A stretch of 58,871 bases of DNA from Pseudobdellovibrionaceae bacterium (GCA_019637895.1 JAHBUU010000001.1:1-58871), one strand, 5' to 3'. Shown: positions 1-58,260, counted from the first letter of the stretch. Program-made: numbers and translations. Notes: generated by a model from the letters alone, not told the origin.

Positions 1-347
1 GTAAAGACGGCGTCATGGCCTTCGAACCCGGTTTCGTCAATGCCCAGCCGGGAGATACCGTCGTTTTCATCCCGACCGATCGGGCCCACAACTCCACTTC
101 CCATCTCGTCCCGGACGGAGCGAAACCTTGGAAAGGGAAGATGGATGAAAAGCTCACCGTCAAACTCGACAAAGAAGGCGTCTACATCTTCAAATGCGAT
201 CCGCACCTTCCCATGGGCATGGTCGGAGTCATCCAAGTCGGAAAAGCCGTCAACCTCGCTGCGGCCAAAGAAAAAGCGGATGCTCTGTCGAAAACCTTCG
301 CGATGAACAAAGACCGACTCTCGAAATACATCGGGCAGGTCAAATGA
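1..347 (+). CDS. pseudoazurin (type-1 blue copper protein), 5' end cut by window edge
   Basis: The frame is open from nt 3 (KDGV precedes the M at 15). 'FEPGFVNAQPGDTVVFIPTDRAHN' plus the copper-ligand loop 'KCDPHLPMGM' (Cys-x2-His-x4-Met) match pseudoazurins. Stop TGA at 345-347. Confidence 0.85.
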   Translation, partial: KDGVMAFEPGFVNAQPGDTVVFIPTDRAHNSTSHLVPDGAKPWKGKMDEKLTVKLDKEGVYIFKCDPHLPMGMVGVIQVGKAVNLAAAKEKADALSKTFAMNKDRLSKYIGQVK

Positions 348-514
348 GCCAACAGAAGCACGAGGAATCCTCCGAGGAGAACCTCCCCTCCTTTCAAAAA
401 CTCTATGACCGGCCTTTCCTGTGGCTCACATTGGGGATGATCGTGATGGTCGTCTTCTATACCGCCTGGGGAATCTTCGAAATGACGAATCTCACCAAGG
501 CGCCTCTTCCGTAG
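344..514 (+). CDS. small single-TM protein (56 aa), possible oxidase subunit IIa-like accessory subunit
   Basis: The ATG at 344 overlaps the pseudoazurin stop (ATGA). It has one hydrophobic helix, 'PFLWLTLGMIVMVVFYTAWGIF'. It sits directly before subunits II and I, like cbaD in Thermus cbaDBA. There is no sequence similarity I can vouch for. Confidence 0.45.
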   Translation: MSQQKHEESSEENLPSFQKLYDRPFLWLTLGMIVMVVFYTAWGIFEMTNLTKAPLP

Positions 515-529
515 GCCTCAGACTGGAGA

Positions 530-1087
530 ATGACGATGTCAGAAACAGAAAGCATGCATTCCGGGATTGTCCCCCCACAGGGCGTCTGGTGGAAAAACGT
601 CCCTCCCCAAGAGAAAGTCTGGATCACCATCGCCTTCGTGTGGTGCATGATCCTGTTCGCGATGATGCCGGTTTGGCACATTCGCGGCGGACAGAATCCC
701 TCGGGGATCCGTCACAAAGTGGACCCGGCGGCCTTTTTGGAAAGAACCGAACGCTTCGTCGAAGAGTACAAGATCGGCGAGGAATCGGGGATCCCGGTGG
801 TCGAGCCACCGCCCGGCTCTCATGTGTATCTCGTCGGCCGAATGTGGCAGTGGTACCCCGTCCTGAAACTGAAGAAAGGTGTCGAGTACACACTTCATCT
901 GTCGTCCATCGACGTCAACCACGGTTTCGCCCTGTTCCCGGTCAATATCAACTTCCAGGTCATTCCCGGTTACGACTACGGCTTAAAGATCACGCCGAAT
1001 CAATCAGGGGATTTCCGAATCATCTGTAACGAGTTTTGTGGAATCGGCCATCACATGATGGTCGGCAAGGTTCTCGTCGTCGACTGA
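530..1087 (+). CDS. heme-copper oxidase subunit II (CuA, ba3/B-family-like, single TM)
   Basis: CuA motif 'DVNHGF...ICNEFCGIGHHMM' (H...CxExCGxxHxxM). One N-terminal TM helix. The short ~185-aa architecture resembles Thermus ba3 subunit II, and 'QEKVW' resembles the ba3 'YEKGW' K-channel entry Glu. Confidence 0.9.
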   Translation: MTMSETESMHSGIVPPQGVWWKNVPPQEKVWITIAFVWCMILFAMMPVWHIRGGQNPSGIRHKVDPAAFLERTERFVEEYKIGEESGIPVVEPPPGSHVYLVGRMWQWYPVLKLKKGVEYTLHLSSIDVNHGFALFPVNINFQVIPGYDYGLKITPNQSGDFRIICNEFCGIGHHMMVGKVLVVD

Positions 1088-1103
1088 CATGAAGGAGCAG
1101 CGA

Positions 1104-2834
1104 ATGAGTGGCGCGATTGAAAGACTAAGTTCCCGGTTCAGAACCTGTGCCGTCACTGGACTGAAGGTCAATAAAGATTCTGAAAACCTGATCAAGGCCA
1201 ATGCGGTGATCGCCATCGTCTGCCTGCTGATCGGAGTCACGGCGGCCTTCGGGCTCGTTCTGACCCGATGGCAGACGGTGCACCTCTTACCCGCCGAGAT
1301 GTACTACCGGTTCCTGACTCTCCATGGAATGAACATGCTGATCTTTTTCATCATCTTCTTCGAAATGGCGATCCTGTACTTTGCAGGACCGGTGCTGCTG
1401 AATGCCCGGCAACCAACACCGAAACTGGGCTGGGCCGCCTTCGGATTGATGGTCATCGGGATGATCATGGTGAACGTCATGATCCTGATGGGAAAAGCCG
1501 ACGTGCTCTTCACGTCCTACCCTCCTCTGCAGGCGCATCCTTTGTACTATCTGGGCGTCATCCTGTTCGCCGTCGGTGCCTTGCTGGCAACTTCACTTTT
1601 CTTTGCGGCCCTTGTGGTCGCGAAGCGCGAAAAAACCTATAAAGGCAGCGTCCCCTTGGTGACCTTCGGAGCTACCACGGCGGCCATCATTGCCGTCATC
1701 ACTCTAGTTCATGGAGCCGCGACCTATATCCCGGCACTTCTGTGGTCCATGAACCTGATCGAGCTCGATGCTCAGCTTTATCGGCTTTTGTTCTGGGCCT
1801 TGGGACACTCCTCACAGCAGATCAACGTCGCCGCGATGGTGTCCGTCTGGTATCTGTTGGGTGGCCTCACTGTCGGCGCGGTGGTTCTGAACGAAAAAGT
1901 CAGCCGGACCGCCTTTGTCCTTTATATCCTGTTCATTTCCATGGCTTCGGCTCACCATCTTTTAGTCGATCCTGGTTTTGGTTCCGCTTGGAAAATCTGG
2001 AACACCAGCTATGCGATGTATCTGGCGGTTCTGGCCAGTATGGTTCATGGATTCACCGTTCCCGCCGGTCTTGAGATCGGTCAGCGACTGCGCGGTTTCA
2101 ATGCTGGAAAATTCGAATGGCTTCGCAAAGCTCCTTGGGGCGATCCTGGCTTCTCGGGCATGGTCCTGTCCGTGGTGATCTTCGGATTCCTCGGAGGAAT
2201 CACCGGCGTCGTCATCGGAACCGAGCAGATCAATATCATCGTTCACAATACGATGAGACTCCCCGGTCACTTCCATGCCACCGTCGCGGGCGGAACCGCT
2301 CTCGCCTTCATGGCCGTGACTTACTATGTCTTGCCTTTGATCTTCCAAAAACGAATTGCCTTCTGGAAGCTCGCAAAACTTCAGCCTTGGATTTTCGGTG
2401 GCGGCATGAGCTTGATGTGCATGTCCATGATCTACATGGGGATCTTTGGTGTTCCCCGTCGTCACTGGGACTCCTCTTTCTCGAACGCCCCTTTCTCGGT
2501 GGAATTCCATCCGGCGGTTTGGATCTCGCAAGCCTCCATGGGAGTGGGTGGTCTATTGGCCGCCAGTGGCGCTCTCTTGTTCGTGATCATCGCGGTCGTC
2601 ACGGTCTTCTTTGGGAAACCGCTCACCGAACAGGCGATCCGCGAAGGCGCCAGTGGGATTCCTCAAGGCGTGCTGAAACTTCCGGCCCAACTGCACGAAG
2701 GAGAAAAGGTCGTTGCCGTTCACAAAAAGGGCGCACCGGGAACGATGGTTTTGATCATGATCTTCTTTGCCTGCTTCGTTCTTTACTACTTCGTGAACTG
2801 GAAAATCCTCTCCTTCCTGTGGAAAGTGGGATGA
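1104..2834 (+). CDS. heme-copper oxidase subunit I, B-family (ba3-like) but lacking the cross-linked Tyr; candidate NO reductase-type HCO
   Basis: Heme and CuB ligands are present: 'LTLHGMN' (helix II His), 'GHSSQQ' (codons 1806-1820), 'SAHHLLVDPG' (1953-1958) and 'VHNTMRLPGHFHATV' (2268-2276). By eye it aligns along its whole length with Thermus ba3 CbaA. The ATG at 1104 has SD AAGGAG 6 nt upstream. An alternative in-frame ATG lies at 1089. Confidence 0.9.
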   Translation: MSGAIERLSSRFRTCAVTGLKVNKDSENLIKANAVIAIVCLLIGVTAAFGLVLTRWQTVHLLPAEMYYRFLTLHGMNMLIFFIIFFEMAILYFAGPVLLNARQPTPKLGWAAFGLMVIGMIMVNVMILMGKADVLFTSYPPLQAHPLYYLGVILFAVGALLATSLFFAALVVAKREKTYKGSVPLVTFGATTAAIIAVITLVHGAATYIPALLWSMNLIELDAQLYRLLFWALGHSSQQINVAAMVSVWYLLGGLTVGAVVLNEKVSRTAFVLYILFISMASAHHLLVDPGFGSAWKIWNTSYAMYLAVLASMVHGFTVPAGLEIGQRLRGFNAGKFEWLRKAPWGDPGFSGMVLSVVIFGFLGGITGVVIGTEQINIIVHNTMRLPGHFHATVAGGTALAFMAVTYYVLPLIFQKRIAFWKLAKLQPWIFGGGMSLMCMSMIYMGIFGVPRRHWDSSFSNAPFSVEFHPAVWISQASMGVGGLLAASGALLFVIIAVVTVFFGKPLTEQAIREGASGIPQGVLKLPAQLHEGEKVVAVHKKGAPGTMVLIMIFFACFVLYYFVNWKILSFLWKVG

Positions 2835-2835
2835 C

Positions 2836-3753
2836 GTGAAACTGTCAAAAGGGGCTCCCTATCTGATGATGATGGTCTGGATCCTGGGGACCCTTTTGTG
2901 GTGGGGGCTCGCTTTTTACCCGACGGGGGAACAAACTCCCGAATGGCTGAGTGTCGCGAGGAACGTCTGCTTCGGAGCGATGGATGGGGGCCTGCCCGAT
3001 CCGGCGGGATGGATCGTCCTGACTTTGGGTCCACTGTCTTTTCTGATTGTGGGTCTCGTGGCCTGGCCGAAAGAACTCGGAAAGGCGCTGCGAGGAACCT
3101 GGTCCTCAGGCCTTGGAAAAGTCCTTGCCGTGGTCCTTCTTTTTTCCATCGGAGTCGAGGCCCACTGGGTCCGCAGCAAACTCGCGACAGCCGCTCTCTA
3201 TGAAAATTTCAGCTACAAGAACTCTTCGTCGGAGGACCTGCCCATCGGCTATCCTCGCACGGATCGACCAGCTCCGGATTTCACTCTGGTGGATCAGAGC
3301 GGTTCCGCGTTCCGACTGGCTGAGCACTCGAAAGAGACGATCCTGTTGACCTTTGCCTTTGCCCATTGTGATTCCGTCTGCCCCGTCCTCGTTCGTCAGG
3401 TGTTGGATGTCGCAGAAAGCTTCAAAGGCGGCGTTCGCGTTGTCGTCCTGACTCTGGATCCTTGGCGGGATACTCCGAAATCCCTGCCCTATCTGGCGCA
3501 AGAGTGGGAGTTCCCGGCAAAGGCCCATCTTCTGTCAGGGCCGGTGGCGGATGTGACCGACGTTCTGAAAAATTATCAGGTGTCTTCTCAGCGCAACGAG
3601 AAGACCGGCGACATCATTCATCCGGCTCTGGTCTATGTGATCGCGCCGGGCGGACGAATCGCTTACACCTTTAACAATGCGCCGGACCAGTGGCTGCGTC
3701 AGGCGATCGAACGGATTGCAAACGATGGTCGCACTCATTCGGCATCTCGATAG
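2836..3753 (+). CDS. SCO1/SenC-family copper chaperone with N-terminal multi-TM extension
   Basis: Thioredoxin-fold Cu motif 'FAHCDSVCP' (CxxxCP) and the distal His in 'DIIHPALVYVI'. About 3 predicted TM helices precede the domain. GTG start 1 nt after the subunit I stop. Confidence 0.85.
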   Translation: MKLSKGAPYLMMMVWILGTLLWWGLAFYPTGEQTPEWLSVARNVCFGAMDGGLPDPAGWIVLTLGPLSFLIVGLVAWPKELGKALRGTWSSGLGKVLAVVLLFSIGVEAHWVRSKLATAALYENFSYKNSSSEDLPIGYPRTDRPAPDFTLVDQSGSAFRLAEHSKETILLTFAFAHCDSVCPVLVRQVLDVAESFKGGVRVVVLTLDPWRDTPKSLPYLAQEWEFPAKAHLLSGPVADVTDVLKNYQVSSQRNEKTGDIIHPALVYVIAPGGRIAYTFNNAPDQWLRQAIERIANDGRTHSASR

Positions 3754-5704
3754 GTTCTTCAACCGCCTTTTTTCATCCCGTTACAACCCGATCCATGCTT
3801 CGGGAACCGTCGCTCTGGGACTTTTTTTTATTGTCCTGATCACCGGTCTTTATCTGAGCTTTTTTTATCGGCTCGGTGAACCCTACGAATCCGTCGCAGC
3901 CCTGAATGCCGATCTTTTTTTTGGCTCCTGGATCCGGGCGGTGCATCGTTATGCTTCGGACCTCATGGCGATCTCTGTCGTCTTTCACATCCTCCGAATG
4001 GTCGCCCAAGGAAAAACTTGGGGTCCAAGAACTCTGGCCTGGGTCACTGGCGTTGGCCTTGTGGGCCTGATGCTGATTTCCGCCTGGACCGGCTATGTGA
4101 TGGTTTGGGATGTCCAAGGACAGGCTCTCGCCATCGCCGGAGCCCGAATCATGGATTCCCTGGGGCTCTTTCCCGACCCCATCATGCGTTCCTTCAGCGG
4201 CGCCGAGAATGCCGCAGCCTCTTTCTTTTTCCTGAATCTCTTTCTGCATGTCGCGATTCCTCTGGGGATGGTGTTCGGCGTCTGGGCTCACACCTCGCGA
4301 ATCGCCAGAGCTGACTGGCTTCCGAGTCGTGCCTTCATGGGGGGACTCAGCGCTTTGCTGATTCTCGTCTCTGTTGTCTGGCCCGCTCCGCTGGGGCAAA
4401 AGGCGGATCTTCTGCTCCGGGTCTCTGAGTATCCGAAAGACTGGATTTTCAATTTTTGGATGCCTTGGACAGAGAGTTCCCCTTTGGCGGTCTTTGCATT
4501 TTTTATTTTGGGTGGACTCGTGCTCGCTGCGGCTCCCTGGTATCTGAAACCCCGGGAAAAACGGAAACCTTCGTTCAATGATCCGAATATCTGCATGGGC
4601 TGTTCCCAATGTGTGCAGGACTGTCCCTATGAAGCCATTCAAATGGTGTCCATGGACGTTCGCTCAAAAATGAAAGAAGTCGCTCTGGTCAATCCCGATC
4701 TCTGTGTCAGTTGCGGACTTTGTGCGGCCTCTTGTGAACCGATGACGATCGGACCCGAGGGACGCAAAGGAGGCCATCAAGTGCGGGCCGCCAAGGCCTT
4801 TATGGCTTCTCTCAATGGAAACCTTGCCGGACAAACCTTGATCGTGGGCTGCCGAAACCAAAGTGGCGTTCTCAAATACCTGAACAACAGTTGTCGAACG
4901 ACGGCGGGCTATCAACTGTACCCGGTCGACTGCCCGGGCACACTTCATAGCGTCGTTTACGGCTTGCTGGCTCAGAAATTTTCAAGAGTGGTCATCGCCT
5001 CCTGCCCCGAGCGAATCTGCGTGAACAAGGATGGCTCCATGCTGCTCAACGAAAGGCTCAGCGGAAAACGAGAACCCACTCTGCCCGAAAGCTCTCTTCA
5101 GAAAAAGATCCATGTCTTTCCGGTGGGAGAGGGCGAAGAATCCGCCTTCTTCCGCAATATCAGCAGTGGTCGCGAACTTCCCGTCGCTCGCAAAGGACTT
5201 CGATCCATTCCAGCCTCGGCGATTGTCGCGGGCCTCGGGATTGTTCTGATCGCGGCCGTTCTCACTCGTTCGCCATCGCCCGCCATTTCCGACAAAGGAC
5301 TGCTGCGTCTCAATATCCGGCTCGTCGGTCAGACTGAAAAAACCTGCCGCCCCCCCTCCGCCGAAGAGACCGCAAAGCTCCCTCTGCATATGAGAGCCGC
5401 CGAGATTTGCAGCTATCGTTCTCTCAGCTACCGCATGAAGCTCAACATCGATGGCAAGGAGATCCTTGATGAACCCGTCCATCCAGGGGGGCTCAAACGC
5501 GACCGACCTCTTTATGTCAGTCGAGACATCGAAGTCGACAGCGGAACCCACCGGATCGAATTTTCGATGGAGCCGCTGGAGGCCAGCGCCCAAACCCTGA
5601 GCCTGGCTCTGCAGAAAAACGTTGAATTTCGACCAGGACAAATCGCTCTGATTCGCTACTCGCCCGATGAAAAGAACGCCGTTCTCAAGGAGAAAGCACC
5701 ATGA
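3725..5704 (+). CDS. fusion protein: di-heme cytochrome b (bc1/b6 N-terminal type) + 2x[4Fe-4S] ferredoxin + MvhD/FlpD-like domain + TM + C-terminal beta-rich domain
   Basis: Two His pairs are each spaced by 13 intervening residues: 'AVHRY..VVFHIL' and 'LFLHVA..VWAHTS'. Ferredoxin motifs 'CMGCSQCVQDCP' and 'CVSCGLCAASCEP'. MvhD-like pattern 'LIVGCRN...VDCPG...VVIASCPERICVNKDG'. A late TM helix 'AIVAGLGIVLIAAVL' is followed by ~150 aa. The start is uncertain (ATG 3725, or an upstream start at 3677). Confidence 0.8.
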   Translation: MVALIRHLDRFFNRLFSSRYNPIHASGTVALGLFFIVLITGLYLSFFYRLGEPYESVAALNADLFFGSWIRAVHRYASDLMAISVVFHILRMVAQGKTWGPRTLAWVTGVGLVGLMLISAWTGYVMVWDVQGQALAIAGARIMDSLGLFPDPIMRSFSGAENAAASFFFLNLFLHVAIPLGMVFGVWAHTSRIARADWLPSRAFMGGLSALLILVSVVWPAPLGQKADLLLRVSEYPKDWIFNFWMPWTESSPLAVFAFFILGGLVLAAAPWYLKPREKRKPSFNDPNICMGCSQCVQDCPYEAIQMVSMDVRSKMKEVALVNPDLCVSCGLCAASCEPMTIGPEGRKGGHQVRAAKAFMASLNGNLAGQTLIVGCRNQSGVLKYLNNSCRTTAGYQLYPVDCPGTLHSVVYGLLAQKFSRVVIASCPERICVNKDGSMLLNERLSGKREPTLPESSLQKKIHVFPVGEGEESAFFRNISSGRELPVARKGLRSIPASAIVAGLGIVLIAAVLTRSPSPAISDKGLLRLNIRLVGQTEKTCRPPSAEETAKLPLHMRAAEICSYRSLSYRMKLNIDGKEILDEPVHPGGLKRDRPLYVSRDIEVDSGTHRIEFSMEPLEASAQTLSLALQKNVEFRPGQIALIRYSPDEKNAVLKEKAP

Positions 5705-7041
5705 ATGGATCTCTCGCAAAGGCATGGGTTTCTCTGGGAGTGGTCGCTCTTCTCGCCAGCGGCTTGCTCGCGATCCTCGTCACCGGTGCCAAGATGCCGG
5801 GGGTGAAACATCTGGCGGACGTCGAGTTCATCCGGTGGTGCCTCGTGGTTCATGTTAACCTCGCGACACTGGTCTGGTTCACGGCCCTTCCCGTGGGTTT
5901 GCTGCATCTGTCAACGAAAGTGCGGGGTACCTTCAGCACACAGCTTTCCTGGGCAGGATTCCTGCTGGCACTGATCGGTATGCTGCTCTTGTTCAGCGTT
6001 CCCCCTCAAGAGGGTGTCCGCCCCATTCTGTCTAACTACATTCCTGTTCTCAGTCACCCCCGTTACTCCATCGGGATCGCCGTCTATCTGGCGGGCATTG
6101 CTCTTGGCCTGCTGTCTCCGAAGTTTTTTGTCGACTCTTTTTCCATCGCGAAAAGATGGCCAGGCCTGCTGGAAATTCGCTTTGGCCTTTTTGTCGGTTC
6201 AACCTTTATCGGCCTGGCCATTGTCACCCTGGCTCTTGCTTTCAAGGATCTCGCTTCGGTTCCATTGATTTCGGAGTTTCGTTTTTTTGAACTGGGAATG
6301 TGGGGAGGTGGGCACTTGATTCAGCACGCCTCGGCTGTTTTCACGGTCTGCGCCTGGGTGCTTTTTTTGTCACGACGAGTGGACCAACCGATTCTTTCTC
6401 GCTCTGAACTCTTTGTGGTCTTTGGGTGGATCGGCCTGCCGATCTTTTTTGTCCCCGTCATTCTGTTCTTCGATGTCACGGGTGGCGATTACAGACAGGG
6501 CTTTACCTGGCTGATGCAGTGGGGAATCGCACCACCGATTGTCTTTTTTCTCGGCCGAGCCCTTTGGCGCCTTTCTCCGCGTCTGTCCGACTTGAAAAAT
6601 CACGAGATCGTTGCTTTTTTTCTAAGTGCCTCACTTTTGCTGATGGGTTTCGTCTTCGGAGCTTTCATCCGCGGACCCGATATGCGGGTTCCGGGTCACT
6701 ATCATGCCAGCATCGGCGCCGTGACTCTTGCTTTTATGGCCCTGGGATATCTCCTGCTAGCCGACCGAGCAGAGAGCCGCTGGATGCTGAAGTCCATGTG
6801 GTTCTACGGTGTCGGCCAAGCGGTTTTTGCAGGGGGAATGTTCCTGGCTGGTTCCTTCGGAATGCCACGGAAAACCTATGGGGCTGAACACGTCTTCACG
6901 CATTGGGGACAGGGTCTCGGTGTCGCCGTGATGGCCATCGGTGGGATGGGTGCTCTCATCGGTGGAATCCTTTTTGCGGTGGCGATCATTCCTCGCTTGA
7001 AATCGACGGCGCCTCTGGCCGGGAAGGTGGCTCATGTCTAA
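5701..7041 (+). CDS. divergent, shortened heme-copper-oxidase subunit I paralog (446 aa) lacking the helix-VII His-His CuB ligands
   Basis: It retains 'LVVHVNLATLVWF' (helix II His, codon 5851), 'VPGHYHASIGAVTLAF' (HxH, 6697-6705) and 'MPRKTYG'. Helix VI reads 'WGGGHLIQH' (His 6313, His 6325). No HH motif is found where ba3 has 'GFHHQFADPG'. The ATG overlaps the upstream stop (ATGA). Confidence 0.7.
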   Translation: MNGSLAKAWVSLGVVALLASGLLAILVTGAKMPGVKHLADVEFIRWCLVVHVNLATLVWFTALPVGLLHLSTKVRGTFSTQLSWAGFLLALIGMLLLFSVPPQEGVRPILSNYIPVLSHPRYSIGIAVYLAGIALGLLSPKFFVDSFSIAKRWPGLLEIRFGLFVGSTFIGLAIVTLALAFKDLASVPLISEFRFFELGMWGGGHLIQHASAVFTVCAWVLFLSRRVDQPILSRSELFVVFGWIGLPIFFVPVILFFDVTGGDYRQGFTWLMQWGIAPPIVFFLGRALWRLSPRLSDLKNHEIVAFFLSASLLLMGFVFGAFIRGPDMRVPGHYHASIGAVTLAFMALGYLLLADRAESRWMLKSMWFYGVGQAVFAGGMFLAGSFGMPRKTYGAEHVFTHWGQGLGVAVMAIGGMGALIGGILFAVAIIPRLKSTAPLAGKVAHV

Positions 7042-8029
7042 GTCTAAAAAACTGCTGTGGTTGCTGAGTCTGCTCATCATGCTTTTTTCCATGGTCGCTG
7101 TGGGCGGCATCACCCGACTGACAAAGTCCGGTCTGTCGATCACCGAATGGCGACCGGTCACAGGCACGCTGCCACCCCTGTCGGAAGAAGCCTGGCAAAA
7201 AGAGTTCGATCTTTATCGCAGCTCGCCCGAATTTGAGCACCACAACAATCATTTCGAACTCGAAGATTACAAAGGCATTTTCTGGTGGGAATATCTTCAC
7301 CGCCTGTTGGGACGGGTGATCTTTTTCACCGCGACGGTCATGGGCTTTGTCTTTTGGCGGAAGAAAGAATTCTCGGGCAAACGCGCTCTGCTTTTGCCGG
7401 CCTTGATCGCCTTTCAAGGGCTGATTGGCTGGCTGATGGTCAAGACGGGGCTCAATCACCGCCCCTCTGTCAGCCATTATATGCTCGCGGTTCATTTTCT
7501 ACTGGCTCTGCTCACCATGAGCGTCGTCTATCATTCCCTTGCAAAGATGAAACAGCCTCTGGTTGTGAAGCTTTCAACGAAGGGCCGTTTCTTGATCGGT
7601 TTGCTGGGAGGCTTGATCCTGCTGCAGATCCTTTATGGCTGCTTCACCGGAGGCCTGAGAGCGGGGCTTTACTTCAATACGTTTCCTTTGATGGATGGCC
7701 GCGTGCTCCCTCCTCAAGGCTGGGATCTGGTTCCCGGCTTTCGAAATCTTTTTGAAAACCCCATCACCGTGCAGTGGATCCATCGATGGTTGGGCATTGG
7801 CCTTGCCGTCATTCTTCCCCTTGTGAGCTTTCATCTGCTCCGGTGCGAAAGCCCAGCGTTCAAAAGACCGATCCTGCATTTGGTGAGTGTCGTCGTCATC
7901 CAAGTCCTCTTGGGAATCTCGACCTTGCTCTTTCTGGTCCCGGTGCCCCTCGCCGTCTTTCACCAAGCGATGGCCGCCCTGATCTGGCTGGGCTATTGCA
8001 ATCTGATCTTCCGAATCAAGACCCCCTAG
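7034..8029 (+). CDS. ctaA: heme A synthase (COX15/CtaA family)
   Basis: 'VGGITRLTKSGLSITEWRPVTG' is the typical COX15/CtaA N-terminal signature. It is a multi-TM protein with conserved His residues ('YLHRLLGR', 'HFLLAL', 'IHRWLG', 'FHQAMA'). It overlaps the upstream gene by 8 nt. Confidence 0.85.
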   Translation: MSKSKKLLWLLSLLIMLFSMVAVGGITRLTKSGLSITEWRPVTGTLPPLSEEAWQKEFDLYRSSPEFEHHNNHFELEDYKGIFWWEYLHRLLGRVIFFTATVMGFVFWRKKEFSGKRALLLPALIAFQGLIGWLMVKTGLNHRPSVSHYMLAVHFLLALLTMSVVYHSLAKMKQPLVVKLSTKGRFLIGLLGGLILLQILYGCFTGGLRAGLYFNTFPLMDGRVLPPQGWDLVPGFRNLFENPITVQWIHRWLGIGLAVILPLVSFHLLRCESPAFKRPILHLVSVVVIQVLLGISTLLFLVPVPLAVFHQAMAALIWLGYCNLIFRIKTP

Positions 8030-29718: not shown

Positions 29719-30600
29719 TCAGCAGGGAATCAGCGTCTCTTCAAGATCGGACGGAGGAGGCTCGCTCCAGAGGGAAAGGGCATATCCACCCCCACCGCTT
29801 CCCGTCGGCTTGACCGCCACAGCGCCCGCCTGTTTTAGCCGTTCCAGATGTTGTTGGACCGCGCCTTCCGAAAGCCCCCAGTCCTCGAAACAGGAACCGG
29901 CATTTTGAATGGAGGAAATCAACAGCGACAAGCCATCCCTTTCATCCATCGACAGAGCCCGTTCACAATCTTGAGCCGCCTGACTCATGCGTGCATCAAG
30001 CTCGCGGCCTTTTTCAGGATTCTCTTCGATCAAGCGCTTCACTTTGTTGACGGCATCCGAGGTGATCCCTCGCTGACCGGTGTAGGAAATGAACCATCGC
30101 GGATTCCATTTAGGGACGACGGCAAACTGCCGCCCCTCCCGTTCAAAATGCAAACCTTCGCCGCTGATCGCAACCGCGATATCCACGCCCGAGCTTTCAC
30201 CATGGAACAGATTTTCGAGCGTTCGTGCGAACTCGGCCAGTTCCGGCGATTTCAGGTGACCCAGGTGATGAAACCAACGGGTCATGGCGACACAAAAGGC
30301 CGCCGAGGCTCCAAGGCCCGCGCCGATGGGAATCCTCGACTCAATTTGCAAGCGACCCTTCAAGAGACTCCGAGGAATTCTGATCAGATCACAGGCTCGC
30401 TCAAGCACGGCCCAGAACAAAGGCTCCAGCTCGGACCCATTGCTCCCGCGAAATTGAACCGCCAAGGGGCCTTCGCCGTCTTCATGGGAAATCTTCATCG
30501 AACGGGACTTCAACGGAAAAACCAGGGCCGGACTGCCGCGCAAGACGGCGTGTTCTCCGGCCAGAATCCATTTCCCGAAAGACTCCGTGTGAAAGGACAT
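29719..30600 (-). CDS. mvk: mevalonate kinase (GHMP kinase)
   Basis: 'GKWILAGEHAVLRGSPALVFPL', GHMP motif 'IPIGAGLGASAAFCVA', 'KPTGSGGGGYAL'. Last gene of the mevalonate operon. Confidence 0.75.
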   Translation of the reverse strand: MSFHTESFGKWILAGEHAVLRGSPALVFPLKSRSMKISHEDGEGPLAVQFRGSNGSELEPLFWAVLERACDLIRIPRSLLKGRLQIESRIPIGAGLGASAAFCVAMTRWFHHLGHLKSPELAEFARTLENLFHGESSGVDIAVAISGEGLHFEREGRQFAVVPKWNPRWFISYTGQRGITSDAVNKVKRLIEENPEKGRELDARMSQAAQDCERALSMDERDGLSLLISSIQNAGSCFEDWGLSEGAVQQHLERLKQAGAVAVKPTGSGGGGYALSLWSEPPPSDLEETLIPC

Positions 30601-31563
30601 TTACTTAAGACCTCGCCACGAGGTGAAGGTCATGTGCTTTTTGCGGAAGTGCTCGATCATTTTGTCAGCCAGTTCCCGCTGATCCGCTCGGAACAGCAAA
30701 TGCACATTCGGTCCCGCATCCATCGTGACCAAAGGTCCATCGCCTTTGTGATTCCAAATGTGCTGACAGGCATCCGTCACATCCGAAGACTCTTTCGTCC
30801 GGTATTTGAAAGGCACGGCACTGGTTTCAAACAGTTCGTGCATATCGATAAACTCGTCCCGGCACAGACGATAGCTTTCGGACCAGTTGCGTTCTTTCAA
30901 AGCACTCGTCAGATCCCGGAGGCGTTGATGAGCCCGATCCACACGGCCTTCGAATCGAGGGCTGCTCGTCACTCGCACGTGAGCATCGCTGGACGAGACT
31001 TCTTTGACGCCCGCACTGATCACGACCGCCGCATGCAAAAGATCCGGATAGCCAAGATCCACAGCCTCGGCTCCTTCGTTTTCCCAAAGAGCCCAAGGCG
31101 CAAAGAAAGAACGACAGGACGAGCCCGAGCCCTTACGGGACAGAACGGACAATTCTTCGGGCGAAGTTCTGACGCCGGTTTTTTGCTCGCGCAGATGAGC
31201 CGCCGCCTGAGTCAGGGCCGCAAAGCTCGAGGCCGAGCTGGCCAGTCCGCAGTCCGAAGGAAAGTTGTTCGCAGACTCAATTCGGTAATGGCCCGAGAGT
31301 CCCCAAGCCTGCTTGAGCCGTTCAAAATGACCCAAGAATTTGCTTCGTCCTTTTTCCGACAACTCCGGAGCCGCAAAGCCCTTCAGCTCCAGGGGCGCCC
31401 ACTGATCTTGGTCGCCGTCGATCTCGTGCAGATGAACTTCCGTCACCAGATGAGGCAAGGTGTAGGACAGAGACGCATTGGTCGGTTTGTTCCCGGTCCC
31501 TTCGATTTTTCCCATGTACTTGATGAGCGCGATATTGGACGGAGCCTGACCTTTGATCATCAC
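30601..31563 (-). CDS. mvaD: diphosphomevalonate decarboxylase
   Basis: 'APSNIALIKYMGK...NASLSYTL', 'NFPSDCGLASSASSFAAL', 'SGSSCRS', 'TMDAGPNVHLL'. Confidence 0.85.
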   Translation of the reverse strand: MMIKGQAPSNIALIKYMGKIEGTGNKPTNASLSYTLPHLVTEVHLHEIDGDQDQWAPLELKGFAAPELSEKGRSKFLGHFERLKQAWGLSGHYRIESANNFPSDCGLASSASSFAALTQAAAHLREQKTGVRTSPEELSVLSRKGSGSSCRSFFAPWALWENEGAEAVDLGYPDLLHAAVVISAGVKEVSSSDAHVRVTSSPRFEGRVDRAHQRLRDLTSALKERNWSESYRLCRDEFIDMHELFETSAVPFKYRTKESSDVTDACQHIWNHKGDGPLVTMDAGPNVHLLFRADQRELADKMIEHFRKKHMTFTSWRGLK

Positions 31564-32501
31564 AAACTTGCTCCCGGCAATTCCGACCCTTTCAAAGGAA
31601 CCGGTGATTCCACCTTTAGCTCCAGACCGCGAGTCGAAGCTTCGCGGACATTCACGATTTCAAATTCGTGCTCCTGAGCCCAGATCTCGAAAAACCGACG
31701 GACATTTTTTTCGATGAGGACAAAGATCACGTCAGCCCCCATGGCTCCGCAGCCCTTCGCTCCCCTCACCCCATTCAACCAGAACAGGTTGTGCAGAATA
31801 TCGAGGGTGCTTTCGGCGACCTTGCCCTGTTTTGCCAAGGCTTTCCCATAGGCAGTGATGGATTCGCCGAAAAGATCGGCGTTCGAGGTCGCCCAGGCTT
31901 CTTTGATTTTTTCCATGAGCGGCGCCAAGGCCGAAAAATCGGTTTCCGTCAGATTCTTGAGGTGTTCATGGGTCGCGACCTTCACTCTGGTTTTCATCAG
32001 AAAACCGTCGTAATTTTCAAAGGGCCAGGCCTTCTGAGTGATCATGCCCGCGTTTTTTTCGAAGAAGGTGAATCCACCTTTGAGCTGTCCGATCATATCC
32101 GCACCCGATGGTGCGCGTCCCTGTCCGTTCCAGGCGTCTTTGCGATACTCATCCAAAAGCACTTTGGTATCGAGTTCCGCCTCGGCCTCGAGATTCGAAG
32201 CCTGCTTCCAGGAATACAGGGCAAAGACGGACAGATACTGGGCGGTCGAAGCCCCCCAGCCTCCGGCCCCTTGATGCGGATCCTGGAATTCAAGTTTCAG
32301 ATTGGAAAAGAAATCCTGATGCCGAGTCATGAATTTCGAAGCCGGCGATCCCTCAGGAATCCCCGTCGCCTCGCCGTGGCCTTCACTCACACGAAGCTCG
32401 AAGCGAGGCTCCGTCATCGACAAAAGGGTCAAGCCTCCATCAAGAGCGAGGTATTCACCTGCGAGAAAAGCTTTGCCTGGAACGGAAAATACAAGTGCCA
32501 C
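31560..32501 (-). CDS. phosphomevalonate kinase (GHMP kinase)
   Basis: 'PGKAFLAGEYLALDGG' (PMK-type N-terminus), 'GAGGWGASTAQY', 'GAKGCGAMGADVIFVL'. Assigning it as PMK rather than MK rests on the N-terminal motif only. Confidence 0.7.
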   Translation of the reverse strand: MALVFSVPGKAFLAGEYLALDGGLTLLSMTEPRFELRVSEGHGEATGIPEGSPASKFMTRHQDFFSNLKLEFQDPHQGAGGWGASTAQYLSVFALYSWKQASNLEAEAELDTKVLLDEYRKDAWNGQGRAPSGADMIGQLKGGFTFFEKNAGMITQKAWPFENYDGFLMKTRVKVATHEHLKNLTETDFSALAPLMEKIKEAWATSNADLFGESITAYGKALAKQGKVAESTLDILHNLFWLNGVRGAKGCGAMGADVIFVLIEKNVRRFFEIWAQEHEFEIVNVREASTRGLELKVESPVPLKGSELPGASL

Positions 32502-32513
32502 GAAGAGCCTCCG

Positions 32514-33809
32514 TTAGAGCGGAGGACGGGACGCTCGCAACTCCTTGAGCACCTCGACCGCATTGCTGAGCGAGATGCGCTTGCGGATGGCAAGGATCTC
32601 CTCCAGTTTCTTGACCATACCGGGAAGTTCCTTTTCCTCGGCGCCCGCGCCGAGCGCGAGATTTTTGATGTGCAATTTCATATGGCCTTCGATGATTCCC
32701 ACCGTGGTGAGAGCCCGAAGTGCACCCAGATTCTGAACCAATCCAACCGAGGCGAGGATGCGCGAAAGCTCGTTCGCGGATTTCGCACCAAGGATGTTCA
32801 TCGCGGTTTTCGCCGTCGGATGAAGGGCTGTCACACCACCCACGGTTCCCACAACCAAAGGCGCCTCAAGAACGCCCGTCAGCGTTCCGTCTTGATAAGT
32901 CCATTTAGTGATCGAACGGTACTGACCATCGCGGGAAGCATAGGCGTGAACACCCGCTTCGACGGCGCGCCAGTCATTGCCGGTCGCAATCAAGATCGGA
33001 TCGATCCCGTTCAAGACGCCTTTGTTGTTGGTCGCGGCCCGATAGGGATCGAGCTGCGCGAACAAAGAGGCCTCTTCGATCTTGCGACCGAGTTCTTCGT
33101 CGATTTTCATTTTCACGGTGGCCCGAGTGACCTTGGTGTCCACCAAGTTCGAAAGGATGCACATCGTGACTTTTTCGCCGGTGAAGCTTTCGATCGGATC
33201 TTTCAGGAATTCACAAACCTGATTGATGATGTTCGCCCCCATGGCGTCGCAGGGATTCATGTGAACGTGGATCACGGCCATGCTGATGCCATCGGGACGA
33301 GGCAAGTGCCGGACCTTGATGTCAGAAACACCACCGCCACGACGGACGAGTCCAAAGGCCACCTCACGGTTCGCCAGATCGATCAGATAGTTTTTTTGTT
33401 CGAGGATGGCTTTTTCAAAGGCCGCAAAATCGCGGACCTTCGCCAGCTGGATCTGTCCGATGATGTCGGTGCCGATCACTTCGGTCGTGATCTCGCCGTT
33501 TTCCCGGATCCACTTGGCTGTTTTGCTGGCGGCGGCCACGATCGAGGTTTCCTCGACGGCCATGGGAATCACGACGTCTTTGCCATCGATCCGAAAGTTG
33601 GTGGCAACACCCATAGGAAGCTGGAACCAGCCAATGACGTTTTCGATGAATTTCTCACCGAGAGCCATGTCGCGCAGTCCGCCCTTTTCCAGGTAGGCGG
33701 ATTCTTCCGGCGTCAAAACTCCGACCTCTTGCAGAGCCTTTAAGCGCTGCAAACGATCCAGTTTCGAAAAACCTTTGAAGATCTCCGTCAGTGTTTTCGC
33801 CATGTCCAC
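32514..33809 (-). CDS. mvaA: hydroxymethylglutaryl-CoA reductase, class II
   Basis: ~430 aa and soluble. 'ENVIGWFQLPMGVATNFRIDGKDVVIPMAVEETSIVAAAS', 'DAMGANIIN', 'GGV' and 'GHMKLH' regions match class II (P. mevalonii-type) HMGR. Confidence 0.9.
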   Translation of the reverse strand: MDMAKTLTEIFKGFSKLDRLQRLKALQEVGVLTPEESAYLEKGGLRDMALGEKFIENVIGWFQLPMGVATNFRIDGKDVVIPMAVEETSIVAAASKTAKWIRENGEITTEVIGTDIIGQIQLAKVRDFAAFEKAILEQKNYLIDLANREVAFGLVRRGGGVSDIKVRHLPRPDGISMAVIHVHMNPCDAMGANIINQVCEFLKDPIESFTGEKVTMCILSNLVDTKVTRATVKMKIDEELGRKIEEASLFAQLDPYRAATNNKGVLNGIDPILIATGNDWRAVEAGVHAYASRDGQYRSITKWTYQDGTLTGVLEAPLVVGTVGGVTALHPTAKTAMNILGAKSANELSRILASVGLVQNLGALRALTTVGIIEGHMKLHIKNLALGAGAEEKELPGMVKKLEEILAIRKRISLSNAVEVLKELRASRPPL

Positions 33810-34831
33810 TTCTCCCGGAGTTCCGACGGGGTTTTGGATCCCGTGCAGAACAAAGCGACTTTCAATTCATACTCGATGCGATCCGCGAAGGCGGCCAAAG
33901 CAGCCATCGGCTCTGGCAGCATCACCGCCTGCAACCACGGCTGGGCCAAACCCACCATCTCTGCACCGAGCGACATCAATTTTGCCACGTCGAGGCCGTT
34001 TCTCACACCCCCCGACGCCCAGAGTTGATACCTCAGGGGAAGCTCTTTGGCATTCATCATCGATTGGACTGTAGAAACACCCCAATCGGCAAAGACGGAA
34101 CCGGACTGCGAGCGCCAATCGGATTCATTGATTCTTAGAGTTTCGACTCGACCCCAATGGGTCCCACCACGTCCACTGACGTCCACCGCGTAAATCCCGG
34201 TGTTCTGTAGGCGTTCTAGAGTCGGTCGCGAAAAGCCCGAGCCGGTCTCTTTCACGATCACCGGAACGGGACAAGCCTTCACCAGAGCTTCAAGAGCCCG
34301 GAGTCCCCCTCGGAAATGGGGTGTTCCTTCCAGTTGAAGAACCTCTTGCAAGGGATTGAGATGAATGAAAATTCCAGAGGCCTGGAGATTCTCGATGAGT
34401 CGCAGCACCGGTTCCGGCCCCGCCTCGATCAACTGGGCGATACCCAAATTCCCGATCAAGACGGCACGAGGAGCCTCCGAGCGGATTTTTTTCCACTCTT
34501 GGGCGGCCATCCCGTTCAGGAGTTCTTTGCGCTGGGAGCCGACACCCATCACAAGGCCGCGTTCCTGGGCAAAGACCGCCAGACGACGATTCATTTCCTC
34601 ACCATGCTCGTGACCAGCGGTCATCGAACTGATGAAAAACGGAACGGACAAAGTGTGTTGCTGAAATTTGGTTCTGAGGTCGAGATCGGAAAAATCGAGA
34701 TCGGGAAGGGCTTCATGCAGAAGCTCGATCGATTCAAGGCCGGCAGAGAGTTCCGACTGAGCCTTGGAATCAAGCGCGATCCGAATGTGATCGCGCTTTC
34801 TTTGTTCAAATTGGGGATCTTGCTCCGCCAT
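33788..34831 (-). CDS. fni: isopentenyl-diphosphate delta-isomerase, type 2 (FMN-dependent)
   Basis: 'FEQRKRDHI', 'ISSMTAGH', 'MGVGSQR', 'VIVKETGSG', 'VDVSGRGGTHW', 'ASGGVRNGLDVAK'. The ATG at 34831 has SD GGAGG upstream; an alternative ATG lies at 34846. Confidence 0.9.
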   Translation of the reverse strand: MAEQDPQFEQRKRDHIRIALDSKAQSELSAGLESIELLHEALPDLDFSDLDLRTKFQQHTLSVPFFISSMTAGHEHGEEMNRRLAVFAQERGLVMGVGSQRKELLNGMAAQEWKKIRSEAPRAVLIGNLGIAQLIEAGPEPVLRLIENLQASGIFIHLNPLQEVLQLEGTPHFRGGLRALEALVKACPVPVIVKETGSGFSRPTLERLQNTGIYAVDVSGRGGTHWGRVETLRINESDWRSQSGSVFADWGVSTVQSMMNAKELPLRYQLWASGGVRNGLDVAKLMSLGAEMVGLAQPWLQAVMLPEPMAALAAFADRIEYELKVALFCTGSKTPSELREKWTWRKH

Positions 34832-34849
34832 TCCTTGCCTCCACATTCG

Positions 34850-50321: not shown

Positions 50322-50882
50322 CTACTCAGCTTTCTTTTGGAGTTGGCGGATATAGTTCACGAGCTGCCAACGGTCTTTCTGAGGAACGTGGGACGCATAA
50401 GGGCCCATGATCCCCTGACCCATCGTGATGACGTGATAGAGATGACCATCCGTATAGGCACGAACCTTTGGTGTCAGCAGTGATGGCGGCTTGAGTGCCA
50501 TGAATTCAGTCACATGGTTCGCCGGAGCATCGCCTTTCAATCCGTGGCAGACCGCACAGTGCGTGTCGTAAGCCTTCACGCCCGTCCACAAAACCGCTTC
50601 GCTGGTGTCACCGGCGAGAGGGTTTTTGTTTTCTTTGGAGGCTTTCTCGATGTCGCTGCCGTATTTATAGGCTTCGAAACCAACGGGAACCGTGTTCTCG
50701 GGAGGAACGCGCATTCCAGACTGATGAGGAGAGCTTTCGTCGTACTCCTGGGATTTGATCGCCGGAGACTCCATCATATCCTGGATAAATTCGATATTCG
50801 GCTGATTGCCGCCCGAGCATCCGGCCAAAACCGAGACTGCCAAAGCGACGACGCCCATTTGAATGGTCAAAGTCGTCTTCAT
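50322..50882 (-). CDS. actE: alternative complex III subunit ActE (mono-heme cytochrome c lipoprotein)
   Basis: Lipobox 'LAGCSG', a single 'CAVCHG' heme site and a distal Met region 'ITMGQGIMGPY'. Confidence 0.8.
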   Translation of the reverse strand: MKTTLTIQMGVVALAVSVLAGCSGGNQPNIEFIQDMMESPAIKSQEYDESSPHQSGMRVPPENTVPVGFEAYKYGSDIEKASKENKNPLAGDTSEAVLWTGVKAYDTHCAVCHGLKGDAPANHVTEFMALKPPSLLTPKVRAYTDGHLYHVITMGQGIMGPYASHVPQKDRWQLVNYIRQLQKKAE

Positions 50883-51408
50883 TAGAACACCGCCACTTTC
50901 TTCACCTCAGCGGCCCCGAGGTCTTTGAACATCTGTTCGAGTTTTCCGGCGTCATAACCATGATCGTCGGAAGGAACAAAAATCGCGAATTTATGAGAGC
51001 TCAAATCCGGATCGATCATTGGCGGGTCGATCTTCGGCAGGCTGCACATATAACCGAAAGCCGCCAAAGACGTCAGCGCCGCGAACAAAATCGTCAACTC
51101 GAAGCAAACCGGAATGAACGCAGGCAAGCTGTTGAAAGGCTTACCACCGACGTTGATTGGCCAGCTGTAAGCGGATGTCCAGATCGTGAACCAGAGACCG
51201 ACGACCAATCCAACCACTCCCCCACCAAAGGTGAAGTAAGGCAGAATCGAGCGACGGATGCCCACCGCTTCTTCCATTCCGTGAACAGGATAAGGAGTGA
51301 TCGCATCGAATTTTTTCAAGCCGGCTTCGCGGCAACGAGTCGCCGCAGTCACGGTCAGATGCTCATCGAGGAAAATGGCGGCCAAACCGCCAATCTGTTG
51401 CTGTGCCA

Positions 51409-51409
<1 letters not shown>
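50882..51409 (-). CDS. actD: alternative complex III subunit ActD (DUF3341)
   Basis: 'FDAITPYPVHGMEEAVG' plus two TM helices. It is coupled on both sides by overlapping start and stop codons. Confidence 0.8.
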
Positions 51410-52772
<1,363 letters not shown>

Positions 52773-52776
<4 letters not shown>

Positions 52777-55700: not shown

Positions 55701-55895
55701 AGCAACGCCGTCTTCAGCATCCCCTTCGCGCAGCGGAGACGACATGAACTCTTGCTCGGCGAGTTTCATGAACTCGGGATCCTGCTCGTAGTGTTCAAGG
55801 CTCAGCCAATAGTTGGTATCCCGCTCAATTTTCGGGCGAAGGGCTTTTTTTGCTTCAAGATCGTGATCGTGATGATCGTGATTTGTGTCCGACAT
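52773..55895 (-). CDS. actB: alternative complex III subunit ActB (fused molybdopterin-oxidoreductase-like + 4x FeS ferredoxin domains)
   Basis: Tat-like '[19 protein letters not shown]' and a large MopB-like region. The C-terminal FeS motifs are '[16 protein letters not shown]', '[14 protein letters not shown]', '[12 protein letters not shown]' and 'CTFCVQR'. The ATG at 55895 has SD GAGGGA upstream. Confidence 0.9.
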
Positions 55896-55903
55896 CTTAT
55901 CCC

Positions 55904-56449
55904 TCAGTGGTGGCAAGTCGTGCAGTTGAGAGGAGCGTTGTTCTCAGGTTGACGATGGCAGTTGATACACCAGCCCATACTGAGATCGGCATTTTGATAA
56001 ACCTTTTGCATCGTCTCAACCTGGCCGTGACAGGTCTGACAGTTCACACCACGACGAATGTGCGCGGAGTGATTGAACGTCACATGATCCGGGAGCATGT
56101 GAACACGCACCCAAGGAATGGACTCACCCTTCGAGTAGGCCTCGGCCAACTTTTGGATGTGCGGGCTGTCGGTCTTCACCTGCATGTGGCAGTTCATACA
56201 AGTCGACAACGCCGGGACGTTCGAATGCTTCGAGCGCTCCACTTGGTTGTGACAGTACTGACACTGAATCCCGTTCGTCGAAACGTGTAGCTTGTGATCG
56301 AATGGAATCGGTTGTTCAGGTGAATGACCTTTGTTGTAACCGAATCCAGGTTGCCATTTGCAACCCGTCAAGGACACGCCAAAGGCAAGACAAAGAAATG
56401 CGAGCCCCAACGTGGCTCTCACAGATGTTTTCAGAGGCATCATGCGCAC
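55904..56449 (-). CDS. actA: alternative complex III subunit ActA (penta-heme cytochrome c)
   Basis: Five CxxCH sites: CQYCH, CMNCH, CQTCH, CINCH, CTTCH. An N-terminal signal/anchor is present. Confidence 0.9.
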   Translation of the reverse strand: MRMMPLKTSVRATLGLAFLCLAFGVSLTGCKWQPGFGYNKGHSPEQPIPFDHKLHVSTNGIQCQYCHNQVERSKHSNVPALSTCMNCHMQVKTDSPHIQKLAEAYSKGESIPWVRVHMLPDHVTFNHSAHIRRGVNCQTCHGQVETMQKVYQNADLSMGWCINCHRQPENNAPLNCTTCHH

Positions 56450-56568
56450 CTATGCTGTTGATTTTGGTTTGCCCCCGATTTAAGCCCCTCTTCTGAGAAG
56501 CGGCAAGACCTTTTTGCAAACTGACTGAGAAACCGGCACCTTACCTCGAGTGGGCAAAGTGATGAATG

Positions 56569-56598
56569 AGACCCGTTCTCACTCGCAAGAACGGGTCT
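56569..56598 (-). promoter_or_regulatory. perfect 11-bp stem-loop between ccsA and actA
   Basis: AGACCCGTTCT (56569-79) pairs with AGAACGGGTCT (56588-98), with an 8-nt loop. It starts 10 nt after the ccsA stop. No clear U-tract follows on the minus strand. Confidence 0.4.
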
Positions 56599-56608
56599 TG
56601 CCTGAACT

Positions 56609-58258: not shown

Positions 58259-58260
58259 TT

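Follow-up and report, generated by a model that had tools for sequence, protein, structure and literature searches.

We analysed a 58,871-nucleotide stretch of DNA from a Pseudobdellovibrionaceae bacterium (GCA_019637895.1 JAHBUU010000001.1:1-58871; hereafter the window), and found that a gene at 3725..5704 (+), encoding 659 amino acids (aa) and a stop codon, joins in one chain a bc1/b6-type cytochrome b, a 2x[4Fe-4S] ferredoxin domain, an MvhD-like domain, a seventh transmembrane (TM) helix (TM7) and a beta-sandwich. We consider the chances about even that this fusion protein serves as a dedicated electron-transfer subunit, by which the quinone pool and a chain of cytoplasmic Fe-S clusters are linked to the predicted eNOR-type nitric oxide (NO) reductase encoded beside it. 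An original prediction, made from the sequence alone, had described a four-module fusion of a di-haem cytochrome b, two [4Fe-4S] clusters, an MvhD/FlpD-like domain and a TM-anchored beta-rich domain. All four assignments held, but the architecture is not rare and belongs to a large family that the databases leave unnamed.

The translation from 3725 contains each of the motifs quoted in the original prediction, at its reported place. The open reading frame (ORF) listing also holds an in-frame ATG upstream at 3677, which would yield 675 aa instead of 659 aa. The start at 3725 is backed by the public gene call (P0001, 659 aa) and by the N-termini of homologues, and it overlaps the 3' end of the SCO1 gene (2836-3753). 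A word-indexed search returned 1084 homologues of the fusion protein, more than 1000 of them full-length. The best 120 of the 1084 were 645-726 aa long, with a query coverage of 93-100% (nearly all at least 97%) and an identity of 38-84%. In a full HMMER scan of 1.84 billion representatives, 607 clusters (50% identity) were found at E <= 1e-30, and a scan of species-representative genomes found the protein in at least 593 genomes/species. The phyla with the fusion gene include Bdellovibrionota, Methylomirabilota, Gemmatimonadota, Myxococcota, Verrucomicrobiota, Spirochaetia and others.

It had been allowed that the gene might be two genes joined by a sequencing error near 4560-4600. This is refuted by the number of full-length homologues and by the ligand conservation in 116 sequences described below. 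Furthermore, the homologues form these 607 clusters, the junction region between the modules is conserved, and the AlphaFold2 model is confident across the module junctions. The probability that two or more genes were fused here by a frameshift or an assembly error is therefore virtually nil. Database entries of the family are named 'cytochrome b N-terminal domain-containing protein', '4Fe-4S binding protein', 'ferredoxin/F420-reducing hydrogenase delta subunit' or 'hydrogenase iron-sulfur subunit'. The family lacks an NCBIfam model, the top match being ExtP cytochrome b with 95 bits against a cut-off of 290. Taken together, the family is real, widespread and unnamed in databases.

To assess conservation, 116 homologues with 37-84% identity were aligned. 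The four His ligands of the haems, all eight Cys of the ferredoxin domain and 3/4 MvhD-like Cys are invariant, and the remaining one, Cys376, is at least 90% conserved. Conservation of these 16 Cys/His ligand positions is far beyond chance. The AlphaFold2 model, built from a 116-sequence alignment, reached a pLDDT of 93.1 and a pTM of 0.90. It contains seven TM helices (aa 26-45, 68-95, 100-127, 165-190, 202-218, 253-273 and 497-513), an alpha/beta region at aa 287-480 and an all-beta domain beyond residue 520. We counted 16 Lys and Arg residues on the predicted negative (N) side of the membrane vs 9 on the positive (P) side. Because of this distribution and the homology to cytochrome b, the ferredoxin and MvhD-like domains are probably cytoplasmic and the beta domain periplasmic.

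The membrane part, aa 1-275 with helices A-F (3725..4549, +), is a member of the bc1/b6 cytochrome b family by score, ligands and fold. The 659-aa protein matched Pfam Cytochrome_B (PF00033) at E 4.9e-15, with 56.3 bits vs a cut-off of 27.2, and this family was also matched in 22/22 diverse homologues. When the family profile was searched against the PDB, cytochrome b6 was found at E 5e-25, and mitochondrial cytochromes b were matched over positions 38-295. The hhalign comparison with a Legionella plasmid bc1 cytochrome b gave a probability of 98% over 252 columns, and Foldseek aligned the AlphaFold2 model with bc1 cytochromes b over 280-330 columns. These alignment lengths indicate that the homology spans helices A-F, beyond the haem bundle. 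Pfam, the family profile, hhalign and Foldseek together give strong support to the cytochrome b assignment.

The two predicted bis-His pairs were confirmed as well. Helix B (3926..4009, +) carries the haem ligands His74 (nucleotides 3944-3946) and His88 (3986-3988), and helix D (4217..4294, +) carries His175 (4247-4249) and His189 (4289-4291); each pair has 13 intervening residues, as in bc1, and all four are invariant in the 116 homologues. By this likeness, His74 would be a ligand of the P-side haem bL and His88 of the N-side haem bH. The fusion protein shares with the bc1/b6f cytochromes b the four-helix di-haem core, with bis-His ligands on helices B and D at the 13-residue spacing, and its HRYASD is similar to the cytochrome b6 motif HRWSAS.

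The likeness to bc1/b6f cytochrome b extends to helices E and F and to the ef-loop, which is aligned to the PEWY region. We located a Qo-like motif, KADLLLRVSEYPKDWIFNFWM, in the periplasmic ef-loop (4400..4462, +), where hhalign aligned it to ADPLTTPEHIAPVWY of bc1 cytochrome b. For the family, the loop KADLLLRVSEYPKDWIF pairs with PADPLTTPEHIAPVWYM, the ef-loop with the PEWY-type Qo motif of the Legionella bc1 cytochrome b. The pattern ADLL..P....DW[FY] is thereby aligned to ADPL.TP.HI.P(E/V)WY, with the motif shifted or altered. Asp239-Trp240 align with the E-W of PEWY, with Asp239 in the place of the catalytic Glu; in the 116 homologues, this Asp is at least 90% conserved. Moreover, ADL...P...DW[FY] is kept both in the four-module branch and in an alphaproteobacterial three-module branch, which have about 30% identity overall.

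There are also clear differences from the bc1/b6f cytochromes b. The fusion protein has DW[FY] for PEWY, lacks helices G and H, and its C-terminus runs on into the cytoplasmic Fe-S domains. With HTSRIAR aligned to HIVALH by hhalign, it also lacks the His of the Qi site, which in bc1 lies five residues beyond the bH ligand. In addition, the protein has no Rieske or cytochrome c1/f partner in its cluster: no gene for a Rieske subunit or a c-type cytochrome is conserved next to the fusion gene in 80 related loci. Clustering the ORFs of these loci revealed no conserved fifth gene, such as one for an HdrA-like flavoprotein or a Rieske protein, so that apart from eNOR I, eNOR II and SCO1 no neighbour is conserved.

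The cytoplasmic 2x[4Fe-4S] ferredoxin domain (aa 286-340; 4580..4744, +) contains eight invariant Cys. The first motif, CxxCxxCxxxCP, is CMGCSQCVQDCP (Cys290/293/296/300), and the second, CxxCxxCxxxC, is CVSCGLCAASCEP (Cys327/330/333/337). Fer4_7 (PF12838) was matched at E 2.5e-8, with 34.7 bits vs a cut-off of 27, along with several other 4Fe-4S dicluster families, in agreement with the bacterial-ferredoxin dicluster domain of the original prediction.

The cytoplasmic MvhD/FlpD-like domain follows at aa 350-480 (4772..5164, +), with Cys376, Cys403, Cys427 and Cys432 in the predicted VGC, DCPG and SCPERIC motifs. In the 659-aa protein itself, FlpD (PF02662) remained below threshold, at E 0.14 and 12.6 bits under a cut-off of 22.3. 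At the family level, however, FlpD was found at E <= 1e-3 in 15/22 diverse homologues (best 7e-10), and other family members reached 37-55 bits (maximum 54.7) with nearly the whole model covered. A profile of residues 350-485 searched against the whole PDB retrieved three distinct sequences, all MvhD: 9sw2_D (E 0.0034), 7bkb_F and 9sfi_K. In the alignment to 9sw2_D, the Cys motifs vdCaGtlH and aaCPernC are paired with VMCSGRIE and TGCHHGDC, respectively. The assignment is thus not established from the single sequence but is supported clearly by the family. By analogy, the four Cys probably bind a [2Fe-2S] cluster. MvhD is a protein-protein electron connector in the Mvh-Hdr complex, and the similarity to it is at fold level over about 100 residues with matching Cys positions. 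Here, in contrast, the MvhD-like part shares its chain with a membrane cytochrome b and a ferredoxin domain, and no gene for a hydrogenase or an HdrA-like flavoprotein was found near the ORF in the window or in the related loci examined.

The chain returns to the periplasm through TM7 (aa 497-513; 5213..5263, +), as indicated by AlphaFold2 and the flanking charges, and ends in a periplasmic beta-sandwich (aa 520-659; 5282..5701, +), for which a separate AlphaFold2 model reached a pLDDT of 93. The beta-sandwich belongs to no Pfam family, and Foldseek against the PDB found generic beta-sandwich likeness only (best E 4e-3, TM-score < 0.4). The original description as a TM-anchored beta-rich domain of unknown fold therefore agrees with the model and with the lack of a significant PDB match. 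Cys541 and Cys562 are conserved and are missing together in one homologue (P0063). This joint loss fits a disulfide, which Cys541 and Cys562 probably form.

We found that TM7 and the beta-sandwich are homologous to a separate alphaproteobacterial hypothetical protein of 166-177 aa (hhalign probability 98.9%, E 3e-17). Its gene belongs to a split operon carried on a Defluviimonas sp. plasmid and chromosomally in Pararhizobium sp. IMCC3301 and Pelagibius sp. CAU 1746. The order in this operon is a small TM gene, eNOR II, eNOR I, heme O synthase (UbiA/CtaB), SCO1, cytochrome b-Fer4-FlpD, the hypothetical protein and a hemerythrin. The cytochrome b-Fer4-FlpD protein has 526-528 aa, the hypothetical protein of these three carriers has 166-172 aa, and eNOR I is 53% identical to its counterpart in the window and shares the GHSSQQINV motif. 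Database relatives of the three-module form number in the thousands, nearly all of them with a recorded FlpD, and the stand-alone TM-beta protein has about 500, every one annotated 'hypothetical'. A plasmid search found one true relative, that of Defluviimonas; the other matches were ordinary cytochromes b. This comparison indicates that the window protein is a fusion of two genes that are adjacent in the split operon. The same module being fused here and encoded by a separate adjacent gene elsewhere implies a joint function of both parts. Downstream of the Pelagibius (L086) operon come genes for a Crp/Fnr-type regulator, a cytochrome c and ApbE, then a NosR-like gene and nirS, which is a denitrification context. 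The hemerythrin gene closes the alphaproteobacterial operon at 12106-12513 in L083, 10083-10487 in L081 and 8519-8926 in L086.

In the window, the fusion gene is preceded by the genes of the heme-copper enzyme. The gene at 530..1087 (+) encodes eNOR subunit II, a cupredoxin (COX2, PF00116, E 3.9e-5) with the complete CuA motif H...CNEFCGIGHHMM, and the gene at 1089..2834 (+) encodes a heme-copper subunit I of the eNOR type (COX1, E 4.9e-65). Subunit I has all six canonical His, with the HH and HFH motifs retained. It carries GHSSQQ where oxidases have GHPxVY, which places Gln at His+4, the position of the cross-linked Tyr of oxidases. Gln at this position is an eNOR signature (PMC8756737 Table A4), and a CuA-containing subunit II is an eNOR criterion (PMC11214002). 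Since Gln occupies the Tyr position, the neighbouring enzyme is, judged by its sequence, an eNOR-type nitric oxide reductase and not an oxidase. The original prediction had placed the fusion gene inside an operon for atypical heme-copper oxidases; the heme-copper operon was confirmed, but its main enzyme is of the eNOR type. The sNOR cluster norSY-senC-orf1 of ammonia oxidisers was considered and rejected, as subunit I has Gln and not Asn at the Tyr position.

Between subunit I and the fusion gene lies a SCO1/SenC copper chaperone gene (2836..3753, +; PF02630, E 3.3e-20), whose stop overlaps the fusion gene start. To determine how far this arrangement is conserved, the window proteins were compared by tblastn with the 80 related loci, 63 of which had at least 3.6 kb upstream. 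eNOR I, eNOR II and SCO1 adjoin the fusion gene in 62/63 loci, across the six groups named above, and eNOR I is 62-92% identical across phyla. The eNOR module is on the same strand as the fusion gene in 26 loci and divergent in 36 (Gemmatimonadota and others).

A related operon has been described in Ferrigenium straubiae, with eNOR II, eNOR I, heme o synthase, sco1 and genes for cytochrome b and Fe-S proteins (10.64898/2026.01.22.701106). The cytochrome b and [Fe-S] proteins were termed 'rather unusual', 'with partial similarity to bc1 chain C', and were detected in the proteome under denitrifying conditions; the authors speculate that a supercomplex couples NO reduction to NAD+ reduction (10.64898/2026.01.22.701106). 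Compared by description only, the order is the same as in the alphaproteobacterial operons. One Ferrigenium protein, in contrast, adds FAD and NADH domains, and the preprint mentions no MvhD domain or TM-beta module. This 2026 preprint was the only literature on the fusion that we found, and a subunit of this kind is not discussed in the eNOR papers.

In the explanation that we favour, quinol would bind in the Qo-like pocket on the periplasmic side, and haems bL and bH would form a transmembrane relay between this pocket and the cytoplasmic Fe-S chain. The chain, made of two [4Fe-4S] clusters and the MvhD-type cluster, would stand in for the Qi site, with the MvhD-like cluster as the contact for a cytoplasmic partner, and the TM7/beta-sandwich module may dock the fusion protein to the eNOR complex. 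In the sub-mechanism that we favour, one quinol electron would go periplasmically to the CuA of eNOR, either directly in a supercomplex or via a small carrier such as the adjacent pseudoazurin, and the other would be drained via bL, bH and the Fe-S wire. The link to eNOR is favoured because of the 62/63 synteny, the two gene orders, the fission and fusion of the TM-beta module and the nirS context. The explanation also draws on the domain identities, the confident single-chain model, the Qo-like loop, the predicted topology, the codon overlaps with the genes on either side and the proteome detection of the Ferrigenium proteins (10.64898/2026.01.22.701106). The idea in the original prediction, that the protein could wire the quinone pool or a cytoplasmic donor to the heme-copper enzymes, remains a plausible inference, though with an NO reductase in place of an oxidase.

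A further scheme, which we hold improbable, is quinol-based electron bifurcation without a Rieske protein. NO reduction by eNOR, with its very high potential, would withdraw one electron from quinol in the Qo-like pocket, and the low-potential semiquinone electron would then travel via bL, bH, the two [4Fe-4S] clusters and the MvhD-type cluster to a low-potential cytoplasmic acceptor, NAD(P)+ or ferredoxin, by way of a partner protein. If true, bifurcation would provide reducing power straight from denitrification without spending proton-motive force.

Several observations weigh against a role of the fusion protein as electron-transfer subunit of eNOR. The family is experimentally uncharacterised. 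No Rieske protein or other high-potential acceptor is encoded in the cluster in the 80 loci, which makes a Qo-type working harder to explain, and the Trp of the DW motif varies in several homologues. The full CuA site of eNOR II, a pseudoazurin-like gene and an Alternative Complex III (ACIII)-like cluster are present in the same window. The last of these means that the organism already owns a quinol:carrier oxidoreductase, so a conventional route from quinol through ACIII and a carrier to CuA may exist, and the fusion protein would be unneeded as a donor. Isolated R. marinus eNOR is active with artificial donors and without such a subunit (PMC11214002). The operon's remaining accessory genes, SCO1 and CtaA/CtaB, code for biogenesis factors, as would suit a role in maturation. 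Finally, one locus (L076, a Candidatus Schekmanbacteria metagenome-assembled genome, MAG) has no eNOR within 9 kb upstream, its downstream flank ending at 0.6 kb.

Electrons might instead run outward, from a cytoplasmic reductant at the MvhD-like cluster through the Fe-S wire, bH and bL to the CuA of eNOR. We judge this unlikely but worth serious consideration, since a transmembrane bis-His di-haem and cytoplasmic electron-input domains do stand within one chain, and the established role of MvhD, to which the PDB matches point, is to connect proteins electronically in Mvh-Hdr. This scheme would be a quinone-independent supply, like that of NOX/ferric reductases, for NO detoxification, and the Qo-like loop would be a docking surface. 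Detoxifying NO is more plausible than respiring it for the many carriers that live as aerobes or predators (Bdellovibrionota), and in one paralogue from the Ferrigenium eNOR operon, cytochrome b and Fe-S modules are joined to FAD- and NADH-binding domains (10.64898/2026.01.22.701106). Among the 150 best representatives of our family, however, we found no such FAD/NAD fusion or other alternative architecture, and no cytoplasmic donor gene is conserved nearby in the 80 loci. The ef-loop motif, common to genuine Qo sites and kept across distant branches, is also hard to explain without quinol binding.

The fusion protein could also be a biogenesis or maintenance factor that supplies or removes electrons for the assembly or activity of eNOR, as NosR/NirI do for the N2O and nitrite reductases. 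Candidate tasks are metal reduction for loading of CuA or the active site together with SCO1, support of heme A synthase, and reductive reactivation. It is well established that NosR and NapH, membrane proteins with cytoplasm-facing [4Fe-4S] clusters, help periplasmic N-oxide reductases, and a NosR-like gene stands beside the Pelagibius operon. SCO1 always precedes the fusion gene, often with overlapping codons, maturation is also the task of the operon's further accessory genes (CtaA; UbiA/CtaB), and isolated eNOR functions without extra subunits (PMC11214002). Still, a complete bc-type cytochrome b with a Qo-like loop seems too elaborate for maturation. The related proteins of Ferrigenium were observed in the proteome together with eNOR (10.64898/2026.01.22.701106), which speaks against this role without ruling it out. 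For these reasons, and because we know of no assembly factor of heme-copper enzymes with this architecture, we regard a biogenesis role as distinctly unlikely. Lower still we place an independent loop of the Qmo/NarI kind, with quinol oxidised on the periplasmic side, both electrons passed to a cytoplasmic acceptor and nothing but co-regulation with eNOR. The module set does correspond to QmoC plus the C-terminal part of QmoB, as established for those proteins, and an Fe-S domain takes the place of the absent Qi His. But no candidate gene for a cytoplasmic acceptor is conserved in the 80 loci. Furthermore, the eNOR adjacency in 62/63 loci from many phyla in two gene orders argues for a direct functional link, as does the fusion with a periplasmic TM-beta module that elsewhere is a separate gene of the same operon.

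The electron-transfer subunit that we favour has partial counterparts in known systems. In QmoABC of sulfate reducers, QmoC consists of a cytochrome b and two [4Fe-4S] clusters, and QmoB has an MvhD-like domain, so that the same electron-transfer modules join a membrane quinol site to a cytoplasmic Fe-S/MvhD chain. However, the cytochrome b of Qmo is of the HdrE/NarI type whereas that of the fusion protein is bc-type, the Qmo modules are distributed over three subunits that include HdrA-like flavoproteins, and Qmo serves APS reductase and not a heme-copper enzyme. Membership of the QmoC/HdrE type was rejected, as the best matches of the fusion protein in the profile and Foldseek searches are bc1/b6 cytochromes b. 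NosR/NirI and NapGH also place membrane-anchored cytoplasmic ferredoxin-type clusters in genetic association with an N-oxide reductase fed from the periplasm, but they are without haem b, bc-type fold and MvhD domain and belong to unrelated families. NarI/NarH and HdrDE share the di-haem b relay, which runs across the membrane from a quinol site on the periplasmic side to Fe-S clusters in the cytoplasm; their cytochrome b fold family differs, and their acceptor enzymes are cytoplasmic and known. The fusion protein is a variant on electron-transfer architectures already known, with a close tie to an enzyme of biogeochemical relevance.

As a source of N2O, eNOR has been validated recently and is abundant in the environment (PMC11214002). 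If the Qo-type site and the cytoplasmic Fe-S/MvhD wire are confirmed, they would represent a new coupling between a heme-copper enzyme and both the quinone pool and redox carriers of the cytoplasm, and a natural bc-type cytochrome b that operates without a Rieske protein or a Qi site. The fusion gene could mark the eNOR module genomically in at least 590 species. Since cultured Alphaproteobacteria carry the operon, the question of electron supply is directly testable.

Downstream of the fusion gene, we found a divergent paralogue of heme-copper subunit I with 446 aa (5701..7041, +), which matched COX1 with 34.2 bits vs a cut-off of 34.8. It keeps GGGHLIQH, with the first CuB-type His and a His at +4, and the HxH haem ligands, and the HH pair is absent. 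Its start overlaps the fusion gene stop (ATGA), which indicates that it is translationally coupled to the fusion gene. The overlapping start and stop codons with SCO1 and with this downstream gene indicate co-expression. Among the related loci examined, the paralogue is present only in close Bdellovibrionales relatives (L002-L004, L006, L084). It is followed by heme A synthase CtaA (7034..8029, +; PF02628, E 5.8e-92). eNOR uses a-type haems, and ctaA is found in many eNOR operons (PMC11214002). In the SCO1/SenC protein, the thioredoxin-like CxxxC domain is preceded by about 130 extra N-terminal aa, which contain several hydrophobic helices.

At the other end of the operon, directly before the subunit II gene, an ORF of 56 aa with a single TM helix (344..514, +) shows 61% identity to the ORF at the same position in a Bdellovibrionaceae locus (L084) and 33% to that in an alphaproteobacterial locus (L083). 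It probably represents a small eNOR subunit that has escaped annotation. Directly upstream of the operon, and probably cut by the window edge, is a pseudoazurin/plastocyanin-family cupredoxin gene (15-347, +; PF00127, E 1.7e-12) with the type-1 copper motif CDPHLPMGM; its product is a candidate periplasmic donor to CuA. The gene is conserved in L001 and not in L084.

The region 50322-58842 (-) holds the ACIII-like cluster together with system II cytochrome c biogenesis genes. The cluster consists of a multihaem cytochrome c gene at 55904-56449, a gene for a 1047-aa Fe-S subunit at 52773-55916, an NrfD-like subunit gene at 51409-52776 and a monohaem cytochrome c gene at 50322-50882; the biogenesis genes are CcsA-like (56609-58294) and ResB-like (58261-58842). 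A mevalonate-pathway run at 29719-34846 (-) includes a GHMP kinase, a diphosphomevalonate decarboxylase, an HMG-CoA reductase and an FMN-dependent dehydrogenase-like gene, an ordinary feature but of use in placing the organism. For the window genes, the nearest relatives come from Pseudobdellovibrionaceae/Bdellovibrionaceae MAGs.

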